Virus record (IMG/VR): IMGVR_UViG_3300025000_000248
DNA: 37,620 bases
DNA from: a virus
Reading direction: 5' to 3' (one strand)
This document shows, in pieces, positions 26,056 through 31,337 of the stretch (positions are counted from its first letter, which is position 1; each line of letters starts with the position of its first letter). The notes beneath the pieces are model-generated. The model was not told where the DNA came from. It worked only from the letters and a program-made list of their open reading frames with translations, and made no database searches. A program made the position numbers and the translations under genes.

Positions 26056-27026
26056 TGTATACCCCTTAATTAAACAAGGTAGCCAAGGTGTACAATATCT
26101 TGGCTACCTATTTGCGACCTTTAGGGTAAGTCGCCCACCCCAGTAATTATTAAGCATGTCGTTAGTGCGTGCATGCCCAGAGTTTCATTAACGCTAGAAA
26201 CTCTCTGAGTACTACTGAAAACTCATAAACTATGCGACCGTTAAAGGACAACGGTGAGTCCTAGGGATGAACAATAGAGCTTGATCAGAGCTGTTTCTGT
26301 CCCTACTCACAATACTAGAACATCTAACATATTCCATTAGGTAGCCACCTGAAGACTGCTTATACCTAGTACTATGAGTAAGGACAGTGTGGGAATTCTA
26401 CCCACGTTGGTAGAGTGCACTCCTGCCAACCGAGTCTAACAACTGTACTTACCTCAGCTTTGTCATACATGGGACTAATACCCAACGGATGGTTCCCATT
26501 GTGCTAGGCAGCTACCCCTCTCACACAGTTTCGAGTAACGGACTAAAACTGTCCAGAACCAACAACACTCGTAAACAAACGGCACTGTTTTTGACAGGGT
26601 ATGCTCCCCCTGTTAGAATAAAAAGAATTTAGCCATGCACATGTGATACACTACCCTAAGGTTGCTACTCACAATCATAAATGCTTGCTTTATCCACTTC
26701 TACTCTAATCCACACACGCTGTGTTATAATGATGCTAACAGATCATCATAAGCCAGAAACAGCACACAGGGATTAAGGTAGAATTAGGGGCCAGAGACAG
26801 GACTTTATACCTGCATTCCTCACGCTTTTAGGCATGTGCTTTTGGATTAAAGCTACTCTGGCATGTAAAATGAGGGCATAGATTTGCACCATGCACACCC
26901 TGCTAGTTTTCGGTTTACCTTGTGATCAGCCCTTACCCCACCTTAAACAAGTATGGTACCATTAAGGTTTCTTGCACGACTTGTTCACTCTAAAGCGTCT
27001 ATCCATTCCGCCACCCCACAGAATAT
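26056..27026. other. About 970-bp ORF-free segment (no ORF of 60 aa or more in six frames) with balanced GC and many local stems: candidate structured ncRNA(s) or degenerate tRNA-like elements. It begins with the palindrome GGTAGCCAAG-11 nt-CTTGGCTACC (26078-26108).
   Basis: Absence of ORFs in the six-frame track plus visible stems. Confidence 0.4.
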
Positions 27027-27307: not shown

Positions 27308-27384
27308 TGGTAGGCCACATAGGATTTGAACCCATGACTCCCGAGATATAAGCTCGGTACTCTAACCAACTGAGTTAGTGGCCT
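27308..27384 (-). tRNA. tRNA with anticodon UAU (Ile, AUA-reading) and encoded CCA
   Basis: Folded by hand. Acceptor AGGCCAC/GTGGCCT is 7/7, D arm ACTC/GAGT, anticodon arm CCGAG-CTTATAT-CTCGG, T arm ATGGG-TTCAAAT-CCTAT, 3' end ACCA. Confidence 0.7.
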
Positions 27385-27388
27385 ATTA

Positions 27389-27463
27389 TGGCGGCAAGGT
27401 GTAGGGATCGCACCCACGTTAAGAGTTTTGGAGACTCCTGTTCTACTACTGAACTAACCTGCC
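27389..27463 (-). tRNA. Probable tRNA-Trp (anticodon CCA) with encoded CCA and atypical T arm
   Basis: Acceptor GGCAGGT/CCTTGCC is 6/7, D arm GTTC/GAAC, anticodon arm GGAGT-CTCCAAA-ACTCT. T loop is TGCGATC (G55, unusual). Confidence 0.5.
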
Positions 27464-27832
27464 ATTTGCAGTTAGAGTGAGTTTCGCTTGACACAGCTAC
27501 TACTCACCCTTTTCCACCTAGGAACTGAATAACACAAGGTGTCAGTTTATAAAGATTGCCGTCCCCCTAGGCTAAGTCAGTTGCCCTGCGTGGTTCTACT
27601 GACAATGTACGGATAGTTCCTTCTCAGTTCCAGTTTCGTCGTTTACTGCTAGCAACTATCAAGCGTTAACTCTCGCCCTATTATGGCGACAGCACGTCAT
27701 TAGGGTAAACCTAGAGCTTGTGGCCCTAACCAACTCCATCGCTTTGTGAATGTCTACGGGGGACTAGCCTGTGCAAGACGCTTGAAGTCATGGAGTTGGG
27801 TAGGGGCATATGCCCCTTGAACTATCTGCTTA

Positions 27833-28726
27833 TCACTTCGCTGCAGGTAGTGGTAAACTTATCATATTGTTTCCGCCAGAAACCATAGACAATTTACCAT
27901 CCCAGTGTAATGCAAGCTGGTACTGAATCAGCTCTGGAGTTATAGATGCTTGTAGCAATTTATTAGAATTAGCTTCTCCAGTAGCTTTTATAACAGAAGC
28001 ATCTGCTATACCTTGGGCATCCACTCTAGCCTTGTTAGCGGTAACTGTGGATTGTGTTAATTCAATCTCCATTTGTTGGAGCTTTTGTTGAGCATCCACC
28101 TTAGCTTGAATAGCTTTCATGGTATCTTCGTCCGGCCTAATTTCTCCAAATGAAAATGTTTCAACCTCTAGGCCAAAGGGTGTCAAGTCTTTGATCAGTA
28201 TTGCATGTATTTTTTCTTGGATTTCTGTACGCTTGTTTCCGTAAAGGTCAAGAACACTGTAGCTAGATGTTACGGCCTGGGATGCAGTCTTTACTTGCTG
28301 CTTGAGGTATCCCGACTGTATGCTCTCAATGTCTGCACCTTTAAAACGATTAAATATTTCCGGTAATTTGTCCACATTAGCGTGGTAAGTAAAATATGCG
28401 TCAACTGATACCGGCTTACCCTCCATTGTGGAGGTATTATAGGAATCATCATTGGGAGAACCTTCTGTCTTAGCCTTAGTTAGCCATACAGTTTCGGTTG
28501 AAACTGGGTATTCCCTAACACTCTTCCAAGGGGCTACTGGGTGCACCCCTTGACCTAACGTGACATCTTCCAGCCCCCCACTCATGTTGTAAATGACCCC
28601 AGCATGCCCTGGATTAACCTTTGTTGTGCAAATTACCCCCAGAATTAGAAGTATTAGCATCCCCACTACTGTTAGAATCGCTCCCTTTGAAAACTTTGGT
28701 AACCCCAGATCTAGATTTCTCCTCAT
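27833..28726 (-). CDS. SPFH/band-7 (prohibitin/HflK/C/stomatin-like) membrane protein
   Basis: N-terminal TM, then VNPGHAGVIY...FGLEV...TMKAIQAKVDAQQ...ANKARVDAQG pattern. AAGGGAGGAAA ribosome-binding site. Confidence 0.8.
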   Translation of the reverse strand: MRRNLDLGLPKFSKGAILTVVGMLILLILGVICTTKVNPGHAGVIYNMSGGLEDVTLGQGVHPVAPWKSVREYPVSTETVWLTKAKTEGSPNDDSYNTSTMEGKPVSVDAYFTYHANVDKLPEIFNRFKGADIESIQSGYLKQQVKTASQAVTSSYSVLDLYGNKRTEIQEKIHAILIKDLTPFGLEVETFSFGEIRPDEDTMKAIQAKVDAQQKLQQMEIELTQSTVTANKARVDAQGIADASVIKATGEANSNKLLQASITPELIQYQLALHWDGKLSMVSGGNNMISLPLPAAK

Positions 28727-28871
28727 TGTTTAACATTTCCTCCCTTAAATAGGAGGACACCCTGTCCACTCCCCCACCTAACCTTTTAAATAAAGGACTC
28801 AGCGCAAACCATATAAGTACAAAAGCGAGAACAATAAGTATTGGAATAGCTGGCATTATGAACAATGGCAT
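28614..28871 (-). CDS. Small membrane protein overlapping the SPFH gene start by about 113 nt in another frame (NfeD-like partner?)
   Basis: Very hydrophobic N-terminus. The overlap makes the exact extent uncertain. Confidence 0.35.
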   Translation of the reverse strand: MPLFIMPAIPILIVLAFVLIWFALSPLFKRLGGGVDRVSSYLREEMLNNEEKSRSGVTKVFKGSDSNSSGDANTSNSGGNLHNKG

Positions 28872-28877
28872 CCCTCC

Positions 28878-29035
28878 TTAATGTATGTGCAAAGGGTAGG
28901 CTAGGAATCGAACCTAACTTCAACCGCCACTTATGTGTAGTAACTGATACTCCCAAGAGAGTATGTAGGAGTCGAACCTAACTTCAGAGCCTCTCACATA
29001 TAGTAGTTGCTACCCTTAACTATGATACCAGATTG
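28878..29035 (-). tRNA. Two tandem tRNA-like elements sharing TGAAGTTAGGTTCGA(C/T)TCCTA T-arm motifs. Full cloverleaves could not be resolved by hand.
   Basis: Canonical GGTTCGANTCC T-loops on the minus strand at about 28895-28905 and about 28968-28977. Acceptor pairing was not found. Confidence 0.3.
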
Positions 29036-29255
29036 TGGGAATTGTAGAAGGCTGGTGATAGAGATCCTTACGCATAAGGACTTATTATGCCATACACTTA
29101 ACACTTTCACCCACCACTGACTAGGTCCAGCTTAAAATAGTACTCATGTTGTCTAACATGATTCCTCGCCTACCAAGCCGTCCTACTTAACGCTGTACAA
29201 CATTTATAGGCCCAATTCTTCTCGGCTTTTCACTGGGCAGTCGCTAGACTGCTTA

Positions 29256-29459
29256 ACCTGGTATCATAATTAAAGGTAGGCATATGCCTCCCAAGATAAA
29301 TATGCGGGGGTAAGGATTTGCACCTTACATGATAGGAGTTTACCCTCGATTAAGCCTATCCCTCTGTCTGCAACCCTCTTAAGGACTTAGGTTTATTTAT
29401 GCAAACAATCGGGAGCGTCTACCTTTTCCGCCACCCCTGGTATCATAATTAAAGGTAGG
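29256..29459. repeat. 24-bp direct repeat CCTGGTATCATAATTAAAGGTAGG at 29256-29279 and 29436-29459, plus an inverted near-copy at 29009-29032
   Basis: Seen in sequence. Confidence 0.8.
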
Positions 29460-29525
29460 AAGTCGGTGGAATCTCACCCTCCAAGGTTTGCACCTTTGCG
29501 TATTCACTACACTACTTCCATATGT

Positions 29526-29602
29526 TGGCAGTACATACAGGAATCGAACCCGTGTTACTAGCTTGACAGGCTAGCGTCCTATAACCCCTAGGAGAACGTA
29601 CC
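29526..29602 (-). tRNA. tRNA-Asp (anticodon GUC) with encoded CCA
   Basis: Anticodon arm CTAGC-CTGTCAA-GCTAG, T arm ACGGG-TTCGATT-CCTGT, acceptor GGTACGT/ATGTACT (2 G-U pairs), 3' end GCCA. Confidence 0.65.
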
Positions 29603-29609
29603 AAGTTAA

Positions 29610-29951
29610 TTAGAATATCTTGTTAGACAGAGTAGCATTTACCTCAATAAGCGGTAGCCCACCTATAAGGAACTTTATAATTCCCTCTAACTGACCATCT
29701 TCATCTAAGATACTGCATATACTGCCGGCACTAGAGCATCCATAGATAACTGTGTTTGTGCTGTTAGCAACATAGCCAACTTTGTCTAGGTTTTCCATGT
29801 ATATGGCAATTGCTTCAGTATCAAAAGGATTATCCCTTTCTCTAACAAGCTTAACTTTTGCACCTAGTTTAAAGATACTTGTTAAAGAAGAACCCTCAAA
29901 TACTCTAGGATTACAACTATTAGCCACTACCATATTTACATATTTAACCAC
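29610..29951 (-). CDS. HIRAN-domain-like protein
   Basis: ...GAKVKLVRERDNPFDTEAIAIY...KVGYVA resembles the HIRAN G-x-V-x-L-x-REP-x-N-x-YD-x-NAI signature. Confidence 0.45.
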   Translation of the reverse strand: MVKYVNMVVANSCNPRVFEGSSLTSIFKLGAKVKLVRERDNPFDTEAIAIYMENLDKVGYVANSTNTVIYGCSSAGSICSILDEDGQLEGIIKFLIGGLPLIEVNATLSNKIF

Positions 29952-30498: not shown

Positions 30499-31038
30499 TC
30501 AATATATATCTGGGCCATATTTCTCCACCAGTTTGCTGTACTCTTTAAGATATTTGATGCTAAGAAAGTAAACTCTAGCTTGTACCCTATTAACTGAAAC
30601 CCCCTCTTCAGCAGCTAGCTCTCTTAAAGATTTCTTGTGTATTATGAGTCCTTCCATTAACTTCCGGTGTTTCTCCCCCAACACTATGCTAGGATCAATA
30701 CTCATCATGTCTATAGCACGCTGTATATCCTTCTCATTATAACTCTGCTCATATGCAGAAAAATCCTCTTCACATGTCTCCTTATTTACCACTCTCAAGT
30801 ATTTTGTGATATGGTGGTATACTCGGAATTCCAACATCTTCTTAATATAATATGGAAAGTCCACTCCACGTTTAGGGCTATACTCATTGACCAATTGAAT
30901 AAATAACATGTTTACTGCTGCAAATAAGTCTTCCCTATCTGCCCCGTTATGCATCATGTGAACAAATTTTTTAGTCATGGCTTTACGGAGTGGCTCATAA
31001 TTTCTAAACAGTGTTTCAGGATCTAACATTAAACTCAT
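30499..31038 (-). CDS. Phage-encoded sigma-70-family sigma factor (regions 2 and 4 only)
   Basis: Region 2-like DLFAAVNMLFIQLVNEYSP...FPYYIKKMLEFRV and region 4 HTH SLRELAAEEGVSVNRVQARV. Confidence 0.7.
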   Translation of the reverse strand: MSLMLDPETLFRNYEPLRKAMTKKFVHMMHNGADREDLFAAVNMLFIQLVNEYSPKRGVDFPYYIKKMLEFRVYHHITKYLRVVNKETCEEDFSAYEQSYNEKDIQRAIDMMSIDPSIVLGEKHRKLMEGLIIHKKSLRELAAEEGVSVNRVQARVYFLSIKYLKEYSKLVEKYGPDIY

Positions 31039-31337
31039 TTATCCATCACCAACCCATACTCACCTGTTATTATAGAGGAATATAGTATACATGTATCAAT
31101 TCTACCGGAGTTCTCAATGCCATAATACCCATAGGACACAACTAAAAAATGGCTGTATACCTTTTCTATCCTAACCACCCTTGATTCTTGATCATGAGGA
31201 TTGAGCATCAGTGCTCGTACTCCCACCAACTTCTGGTACTTGTTTTGCATGTTTCTAAACATGAGGGTAGCCTCAGTTGCCTGAGGCTTTTTTGCTTTCT
31301 TTTTATGTTCTTCCAGTTTTTCTAGGAATTGTTTCAA
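31035..31337 (-). CDS. Hypothetical protein
   Basis: ORF of 100 aa with a 4-bp overlap with the sigma gene. Confidence 0.45.
   Translation of the reverse strand: MKQFLEKLEEHKKKAKKPQATEATLMFRNMQNKYQKLVGVRALMLNPHDQESRVVRIEKVYSHFLVVSYGYYGIENSGRIDTCILYSSIITGEYGLVMDK

Follow-up and report, generated by a model that had tools for sequence, protein, structure and literature searches.

In a viral DNA of 37,620 nucleotides (nt) from the IMG/VR database (record IMGVR_UViG_3300025000_000248; this whole stretch is called the window below), a gene for a protein with an SPFH/Band_7 domain is located directly downstream of a gene for a small membrane protein. The SPFH open reading frame (ORF) occupies positions 27833-28726 on the minus strand (297 amino acids, aa), and the small ORF occupies positions 28614-28871 on the same strand (85 aa). 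We have shown that these genes constitute a two-gene phage membrane cassette with complementary predicted topologies and an SPFH architecture of the cage type. It is an ordinary, widely distributed viral gene pair, and the pairing is conserved far beyond its annotation. In the papers that can be searched, the breadth of the partner conservation does not appear to have been described previously. This is a modest comparative result and not a new kind of system.

Conservation of the gene pair

Using tblastn, we found SPFH homologues in 688 of the 50,697 GenBank phage records, with an identity not exceeding 40%. They belong to Staphylococcus phages of the genus Kayvirus, Bacillus phages of the Bastillevirinae, N4-like phages, phages of Erwinia, Klebsiella, Salmonella and Caulobacter, and crAss-like phages. 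To this we added a survey of 65 distinct IMG/VR loci (L numbers below designate individual loci, including those of annotated phages), in which the SPFH relatives have 34–78% identity. A small ORF with a hydrophobic helix was counted as a partner when its end was between -80 and +125 nt from the SPFH start. Such an ORF with a transmembrane (TM) helix was located directly upstream of the SPFH gene in 57 of the 65 loci, as compared to 24 of 342 control ORFs of the same loci (odds ratio 94, Fisher p=3e-41). Almost all relatives have the two genes abutting or overlapping; therefore, they should be co-transcribed and are probably translationally coupled. At loci L098 and L099 the pair is downstream of the ribonucleotide reductase (RNR) gene.

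The pairing can be followed in phages of Gram-positive hosts. The partner of Bacillus phage vB_BcgM has 44 aa, and the pair adjoins the polA gene. In the temperate Bacillus phage B13 the partner has 46 aa, and the pair is located between the dUTPase and RecU genes. In Kayvirus, for which the adjacency has been noted previously (PMC7150955), the SPFH gene mbpS is directly preceded by the gene of MbpV and shares 1 nt with it; MbpV is small and combines an N-terminal TM helix with a charged tail. MbpS and the window SPFH protein are homologous (about 31% identity over 87% of the length). Unlike the window partner, MbpV is longer (102 aa) and belongs to phrog_3667; the window partner matches phrog_35614 weakly (E=1.3e-3) and gives no phrog_3667 match. 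A profile retrieves both partner groups when it already contains MbpV, which makes this test circular.

In phages of Gram-negative hosts the same arrangement takes a different form. The partner in the N4-like phage Moo19 is gp30, which is similar to N4 gp19 and has two TM helices (L096, 1748-2777, gp30-gp31). In Klebsiella phage KB57 the membrane protein is encoded two genes upstream, and an ORF for a soluble protein of 54 aa intervenes (L109, 1575-2822, KB57_115-117). The two-TM partners of both the N4-like phages and KB57 belong to phrog_1130. A membrane protein is also encoded upstream of the SPFH gene in a crAss-like phage (L112, 1740-2753), where it likewise has two TM helices, and in Caulobacter phage Magneto. 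The SPFH homologues of Gram-negative phages are lipoproteins with a lipobox of the LTGC type. The proteins of PHROG 200 from these phages (for example, N4 gp20, with the N4 gp19-like phrog_1130 protein upstream) resemble the window pair in belonging to the same SPFH family and in having a small membrane protein gene upstream. The difference is in the anchor and the partner: the N4-type proteins have a lipid anchor at the lipobox and a two-TM partner, whereas the window has an uncleaved TM anchor and a one-TM partner.

Two proteins depart from the two-gene arrangement. Gp49 of Microbacterium phage Count (L111, 1800-2777) and the protein P0109 have two N-terminal TM helices, the first of which begins at residue 1. 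In Count the SPFH gene is not preceded by a small membrane ORF, and P0109 likewise has no separate partner. These proteins may represent a natural fusion of the two components, with exactly the topology predicted for the pair. Such fusions give weak Rosetta-stone support for a physical association of the two proteins.

Features of the two proteins and their genes

The upstream ORF had been described in the initial annotation as a small TM protein, and our analysis confirmed a genuine, conserved gene of a single-pass membrane partner. The product has one N-terminal hydrophobic helix (residues 2-20). The conserved core (28734-28871, minus strand) comprises codons 1-46, with the TM helix at the extreme N-terminus followed by a basic amphipathic segment, PLFKRLGG...YLREEM, which is predicted to be cytoplasmic. 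The common architecture of 28 aligned partners includes an extreme N-terminal TM helix, often with Trp near its end, and a conserved Gly, after which an amphipathic basic helix and an acidic tail follow; the conserved core is about 41-50 aa long. No Pfam match at E<=1 was obtained for the window partner and 9 diverse partners. The partners fall into PHROGs 3667, 9657 and 35614, and the two-TM form into 1130; the sole name given to them by the sources is MbpV. The likeness of the amphipathic tail to inhibitors of the protease FtsH was tried with the sequences of SpoVM and lambda CIII and was rejected (hhalign probability 0.2%).

The Shine-Dalgarno sequence AAGGAGG of the partner (28873-28879, minus strand), which is kept in the related locus L011, is 7 nt before an in-frame TTG at 28865 (codon 3). 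Metagenome gene callers start the partner at this TTG in public contigs of the same phage (83 aa). Because the Shine-Dalgarno sequence is strong and so placed, a partner of 83 aa from TTG 28865 is more likely than one of 85 aa from ATG 28871. A second, Shine-Dalgarno-like sequence, GGGAGG (28739-28744, minus strand), lies within the partner gene and precedes the SPFH ATG by 12 nt; in L011 the sequence AAGGAG is found about as far from the SPFH start.

It could be supposed that the SPFH gene stands alone and that the small ORF arose by chance or reflects an annotation error. Short hydrophobic ORFs are easily overcalled, and the last 39 codons here are unconserved, of low complexity and out of the SPFH frame. 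However, the position and architecture are kept in the large majority of the surveyed loci and in several phage families, the ratio of nonsynonymous to synonymous substitution rates (dN/dS) for codons 1-46 of the window partner and its L011 orthologue is 0.23, the Shine-Dalgarno sequence is strong, and the partner families have PHROGs of their own. We consider this explanation highly improbable.

The two ORFs overlap by 113 nt in different frames according to their coordinates. This overlap, pointed out in the initial annotation, is real as ORF geometry, but it is not conserved in relatives. Conservation is limited to the first ~46 partner codons, and the other 39 codons have no counterpart in relatives. 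They encode an S/N/G-rich, unconserved tail (28614-28733, minus strand), in which 28614-28726 (113 nt) reads through the SPFH start out of frame. In L011 the small ORF has 60 aa and overlaps the SPFH gene by 41 nt; the corresponding values are 43 aa and 14 nt in L007, 44 aa and 11 nt in L014, and 41 aa and 1 nt in L009 and L013. All five small ORFs share the TM helix and then PL[FY]xK[IL]G...I[KR]EE, and the usual overlap in related loci is -1 to 41 nt. In a DNA alignment, the TAA stop codon of L011 aligns with AAA in the window. These alignments indicate that the 113-nt overlap is a lineage-specific by-product of a lost stop codon, which resulted in the long overlap, and that it is not functional. 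The ancestral state is a short overlap of the coupling type. A stop-free run of 37 codons in an alternative frame is not unusual alone (estimated chance 0.1-0.2). We also considered a programmed frameshift that would fuse both ORFs and rejected it, since the small ORF of the relatives stops 1-41 nt into the SPFH gene and L011 has TAA in place of AAA.

The SPFH identity proposed in the initial annotation holds: the Pfam Band_7 profile (PF01145) matched residues 36-222 of the ORF with E=4.7e-29 and 102.1 bits against a cutoff of 23.6. The first 22 residues (MRRN...F-KG) are conserved among 20 aligned homologues, and for this reason the SPFH start is assigned to ATG 28726. Public gene calls open the gene at Met23 (P0001, 275 aa). 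This start is a systematic mis-annotation in public metagenome data, and the reason is apparently the reduced overlap. The Met23 start drops 28661-28726 (minus strand), so that the conserved cytoplasmic tail is lost together with half of the membrane helix.

An AlphaFold2 (AF2) monomer model of the SPFH protein was built from a 68-sequence alignment. The full-length model (predicted local distance difference test score, pLDDT, 88.9) consists of a TM helix (residues 11-32), a beta/alpha domain (34-198), a 62-residue helix (200-261), a short helix (264-273) and a low-confidence C-terminus, whose last 20 residues have pLDDT <55. On the minus strand, the N-terminal membrane helix, placed at residues 15-33 by hydropathy, the AF2 helix and positive-inside counts, corresponds to 28628-28684, and the Band_7/SPFH domain in its Pfam envelope (residues 36-222) corresponds to 28061-28621. 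The long C-terminal helix (27944-28129, minus strand) is equivalent to the wall-forming coiled coil of SPFH cages. Further downstream, the C-terminal motif W275-x-G277 ... G284 ... P292 (27851-27904, minus strand) has invariant columns in 20 homologues and recurs in the Kayvirus MbpS, B13 and N4-like homologues. The model suggests that this motif probably becomes ordered only in an oligomer.

Foldseek matched the model with probability 1.0 over 260-318 aligned columns to cage subunits of prohibitin (PHB), HflK/C, erlin, stomatin, flotillin and QmcA-YbbJ, with PHB2/PHB1 and HflK/C as the top matches. Because essentially the whole chain is aligned to known cage subunits, the SPFH protein has the full layout of a cage-forming SPFH subunit, and we infer from the model that it oligomerises. 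A profile search of the PDB with the protein gave PHB2 (3e-14), PHB1 (1e-12), HflK (5e-5) and erlin (1e-4), and homologues carry the source name 'prohibitin family protein'. By sequence, the protein is of the prohibitin type, and its relatives of this type are closer than stomatin, flotillin or HflK/C. The PHROG 200 profile ('lipoprotein') matches residues 15-288 (E=6.5e-64). Lipoprotein status of the window protein was nevertheless rejected: G-V-I-C around C34 is not a canonical lipobox, and the Cys is Ser in close relatives. The anchor appears to be a TM helix rather than a lipid.

The distribution of lysine and arginine around the helices was used to predict topology. The partner has 0.25 of these residues ahead of its TM helix and 3.25 behind it, and its predicted orientation is therefore N-out/C-in. 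In 68 SPFH homologues the count is 1.96 before the helix and 0.88 after it, which predicts that the N-terminus is inside and the domain outside. The predicted location of the SPFH domain is accordingly the outer side of the host cytoplasmic membrane. The SPFH homologues of Gram-negative phages are exported, since lipoboxes are present, and the nearest solved SPFH relatives face an equivalent compartment. These closest solved relatives are PHB1/PHB2 (PDB 8rrh, 9o9z; sequence E=3e-14, fold E=9e-17), with which the window protein shares the N-terminal anchor, SPFH domain, long helix and C-terminal segment, as well as a topologically equivalent orientation with a non-cytoplasmic domain. Unlike PHB1/PHB2, to which the identity is 17-19%, the phage protein is encoded by a single gene without a second paralogue, and any ring would therefore be homo-oligomeric. 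Moreover, the window protein is paired with a mini membrane protein, which prohibitins lack.

The initial annotation compared the pair with NfeD-SPFH operons. The cassette could then be a reduced operon of this kind, in which a degenerate NfeD binds the SPFH C-terminus as in QmcA-YbbJ or YuaF-FloT. In these operons and in PH1510-PH1511 a membrane protein gene is operon-coupled to the SPFH gene, the gene order is alike, and QmcA-YbbJ is among the fold matches of the window protein. However, none of the 10 partners gives a match to PF01957 or to any other Pfam family at E<=1. The partner is three to four times shorter than the NfeD proteins, its core of 41-50 aa being too short for an OB-fold, and the soluble parts of the two proteins are predicted on opposite sides of the membrane, contrary to the topology in NfeD operons. 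NfeD accompanies SPFH proteins of the stomatin and flotillin types (SPFH1/2/5), no NfeD is reported for SPFH3, SPFH4 and SPFH6-12, and the prohibitin type is SPFH4 (PMC2636767). The likeness is only positional, and a reduced NfeD operon seems most improbable.

A second link was proposed to a homologue of the major vault protein (MVP), encoded 5.9 kb from the pair (842 aa, 19440-21968, minus strand; MVP_shoulder E=6e-26, Vault_3 E=4e-7). The remark that the MVP shoulder is itself SPFH-like proved correct: the window MVP ORF matches Band_7 weakly, and Foldseek matches vault structures to the SPFH model, more weakly than the cage subunits (E about 1e-8). The SPFH protein and the MVP homologue might be parts of one lattice or assembly, since both have SPFH-like folds and their 6-kb synteny is kept in the related phage L011/L012. 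Against this, the synteny is conserved only in the window lineage, and MVP homologues were found in 3 of the 50,697 GenBank phage records as compared to 688 for SPFH. These three records are huge phages (LR756500, LR756501 and LR756503; 43% identity), in which the 20 kb on either side of MVP contain no SPFH gene. In addition, MVP has no membrane anchor, and the SPFH domain is predicted outside the cytoplasm. A common assembly is therefore very hard to accept, and the proposed partnership was not supported. In the few inspected loci of other phage groups that carry the pair, the MVP homologue was not found, and this was no systematic check. One related IMG/VR contig carries an MVP homologue with 72% identity. 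Phages carry the MVP homologue far less often than the SPFH gene, and it may merit a separate study.

For the window itself, the result is mostly corrective: the public SPFH start is wrong, the 113-nt overlap is incidental, and the NfeD and MVP links fail.

Possible functions of the cassette

SPFH or 'prohibitin' genes have appeared in phage gene lists from 2006 at the latest (PMC1524935) and make up a large catalogued family (PHROG 200); papers continue to call their function unclear (PMC13239085, PMC10269572). No demonstrated function of phage SPFH proteins was found in our literature searches. Given their frequency in the GenBank records, SPFH/prohibitin genes are among the commoner unexplained phage accessory genes, including those of therapeutic Kayvirus and N4-like phages, and papers up to 2026 call their role unclear. 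A near-constant mini partner turns a lone domain annotation into a two-component module that can be tested. Phage K mbpV/mbpS, the Bacillus Bastille-like phages and N4 gp19/gp20 are tractable models for functional work.

All SPFH proteins whose structures have been solved (prohibitin, HflK/C, erlin, stomatin, flotillin and QmcA) oligomerise. By analogy, subunits of the phage SPFH protein would assemble into a ring or dome that stands on the outside of the host membrane. The dome would fence off a membrane patch with the mini partner in or at this patch, and the two proteins would be in contact via their membrane helices and short cytoplasmic tails. Such a module would act in early-to-middle infection; this timing is probable because the pair lies among DNA-metabolism genes in most sampled lineages. 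On these analogies, a ring or dome that encloses a partner-containing patch and acts early to middle seems somewhat more probable than otherwise. As the best explanation overall, we favour a co-translated dome module that fences off a membrane process, to which we would give an even chance.

The first guess for the target of the dome is a host membrane protease of the FtsH type; modulation of such a protease, suggested in the initial annotation, is plausible from the family precedents. By trapping or shielding the protease, the dome would change the turnover rates of membrane or regulatory proteins in the infected cell. The precedents are well established: HflK/C acts with FtsH, and prohibitin with the m-AAA protease (structures 7wi3, 9cz2 and PHB complexes). 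HflK/C-FtsH is the classic link between SPFH proteins and phages, via the stability of lambda CII. The window protein is like E. coli HflK/HflC in complex with FtsH (PDB 7wi3, 7vhp, 9cz2) in having the SPFH fold, a membrane anchor and an extracytoplasmic cage-type architecture, the latter being predicted here. Reasoning from these complexes, we propose FtsH capture tentatively and place it ahead of superinfection exclusion or envelope protection, with lysis timing third.

Several observations weigh against a partner-bearing dome around FtsH. No recognisable partner is present in 8 of the 65 loci (several of them are disrupted genes or near-misses of the thresholds), in a Neobacillus/Bacillus chromosomal subclade and in Streptococcus phage phi3396. 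Orthology with HflK/HflC was rejected, since the scores of the equivalogs TIGR01933 and TIGR01932 are 18.8 and 14.4 bits, far below the cutoffs of 159.4 and 134.4. The window SPFH protein is single and phage-encoded, and the cassette contains no pair of HflK/HflC-like paralogues; the neighbour of its only SPFH gene encodes the mini protein. According to the Lol rule, lipoproteins without Asp at +2 may reach the outer membrane. Some of the Gram-negative phage homologues are such lipoproteins, and from the outer membrane FtsH could not be caged. The pair of Kayvirus sits in the lysis region, unlike the window pair, which is beside ligase, tRNA and SPO1-type sigma-factor genes, and the pair of Vi01-like and N4-like phages adjoins a superinfection-exclusion gene; both locations favour other explanations. 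The role of phage SPFH proteins has itself been called unclear (PMC13239085).

The location near an exclusion gene suggests that an early-made outer SPFH dome, together with the partner, stiffens or covers the membrane. The DNA-entry channel of a rival phage would then be blocked, or membrane-damaging host defences would be blunted. T4 Imm/Sp, Ltp and Llp are exclusion proteins that are likewise small membrane proteins or lipoproteins. The predicted extracytoplasmic position of the SPFH domain and the lipoprotein nature of the Gram-negative homologues are consistent with this idea, as is the presence of the pair in early gene clusters of both virulent and temperate phages. An annotated superinfection-exclusion gene is located just upstream in the N4-like Moo19 and in the Vi01-like PhiSH19 (PMC3220722). 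However, this adjacency is anecdotal, no known exclusion protein showed sequence similarity, and the literature search gave no link between SPFH and exclusion, just a genome table. The PADLOC models gave no match for the SPFH protein and a chance-level match for the small ORF (E=0.015). Exclusion or envelope protection is an unlikely role, which we rank second.

The Kayvirus location leads to another possibility. The partner could be similar to a holin or antiholin, and the SPFH ring could corral either the partner or the true holin, delaying or localising the holes and so timing lysis. The partner does have a single TM helix and a charged C-terminal tail. According to the Kayvirus authors, MbpV resembles holins and mbpV-mbpS lies between lysK and tgl (PMC7150955). 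A peptidoglycan hydrolase is encoded two genes downstream in the crAss-like phage, and an M23 peptidase gene is 5 kb away in the window. Yet no partner matches a Pfam holin family, the conserved core of 41-50 aa is short for a holin, and most lineages place the pair among genes of replication and nucleotide metabolism, away from lysis cassettes. A role in lysis timing seems to us the least probable of these three.

Returning to the fenced-off membrane patch, a more far-reaching proposal can be formulated. The mini partner may be an obligate subunit or a client of a phage-built, homo-oligomeric, prohibitin-like cage that serves many phage families as a module for host-membrane takeover. We regard this as doubtful at present. 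If it is true, the partners would form a class distinct from NfeD, with one TM helix in phages of Gram-positive hosts and two in the phrog_1130 proteins of phages of Gram-negative hosts. The cage would then be a general device of host-membrane takeover, and the fenced machine could be, for example, FtsH, the Sec or holin machinery, or the site of DNA entry.

Genomic surroundings of the pair

Nearly all genes of the window are on the minus strand. The neighbours of the pair include genes for an SPO1-type gene-33 protein, a sigma-70-like factor, ligase, 5'-3' exonuclease, gp32, PolA, a HIRAN protein, the M23 peptidase and a UvrD helicase. The gene of the gene-33-like protein of the SPO1 type (PF25742, E=8e-22) overlaps that of a sigma-70 region-2 protein (30499-31337, minus strand), which suggests an SPO1-style late-transcription pair. 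A small HIRAN-domain protein (29610-29951, minus strand) comes after these genes.

The window sequence originates from groundwater metagenomes, and several public contigs match it at 99.4-99.9% identity. The cassette is invariant across six public contigs of this phage, and population variation is uninformative. A megablast search found no isolate phage close at the DNA level, and the best identity of a phage protein to the window SPFH protein is 40%. All nine relatives of the SPFH clade from cellular genomes (9/9) belong to Bacillota. The seemingly bacterial SPFH homologues sit in phage-like clusters with genes for RNR, ThyA, dihydrofolate reductase (DHFR) and thymidine kinase (TK). The window appears to originate from a large phage of a Gram-positive host, possibly a Herelleviridae-like one.

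According to the initial annotation, the pair is embedded in a tRNA island. The tRNA genes do flank the pair in the window, but this embedding is lineage-specific. Three tRNAs were predicted with confidence: tRNA-Ile(TAT) (27308-27384, minus strand), tRNA-Trp (27389-27463) and tRNA-Asp (29526-29602). The anticodon TAT of tRNA-Ile is uncommon in bacteria. A fourth tRNA (26789-26862, minus strand) is borderline: Rfam gives it 29.4 bits against the gathering score of 29 bits, and ARAGORN misses it.

The 650 nt between tRNA-Asp and the small ORF (28875-29525, minus strand) contain no ORF and no Rfam match, and their folding z-score is -3.4. Two T-arm-like 21-mers, which look like tRNA debris, are present at 28902-28922 and 28966-28986. 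ARAGORN finds nothing in 28875-29525 at default settings; its relaxed intron mode yields a candidate tRNA at 28893-29188 with an intron of 211 nt. The same gap has an exact direct repeat of 24 nt (29257-29280 and 29436-29459), one copy of which pairs with 29010-29035 in a predicted long-range helix of ~23 bp. A scan for promoters and terminators gave no more sites than shuffled sequence. The palindrome GGCATATGCC is present exactly twice in the window (0.03 expected), at 27805-27814 and 29279-29288. Its copies bracket the cassette, one being just 3' of the SPFH stop and the other ~400 nt upstream of the small ORF, and they could be hairpins or processing sites.

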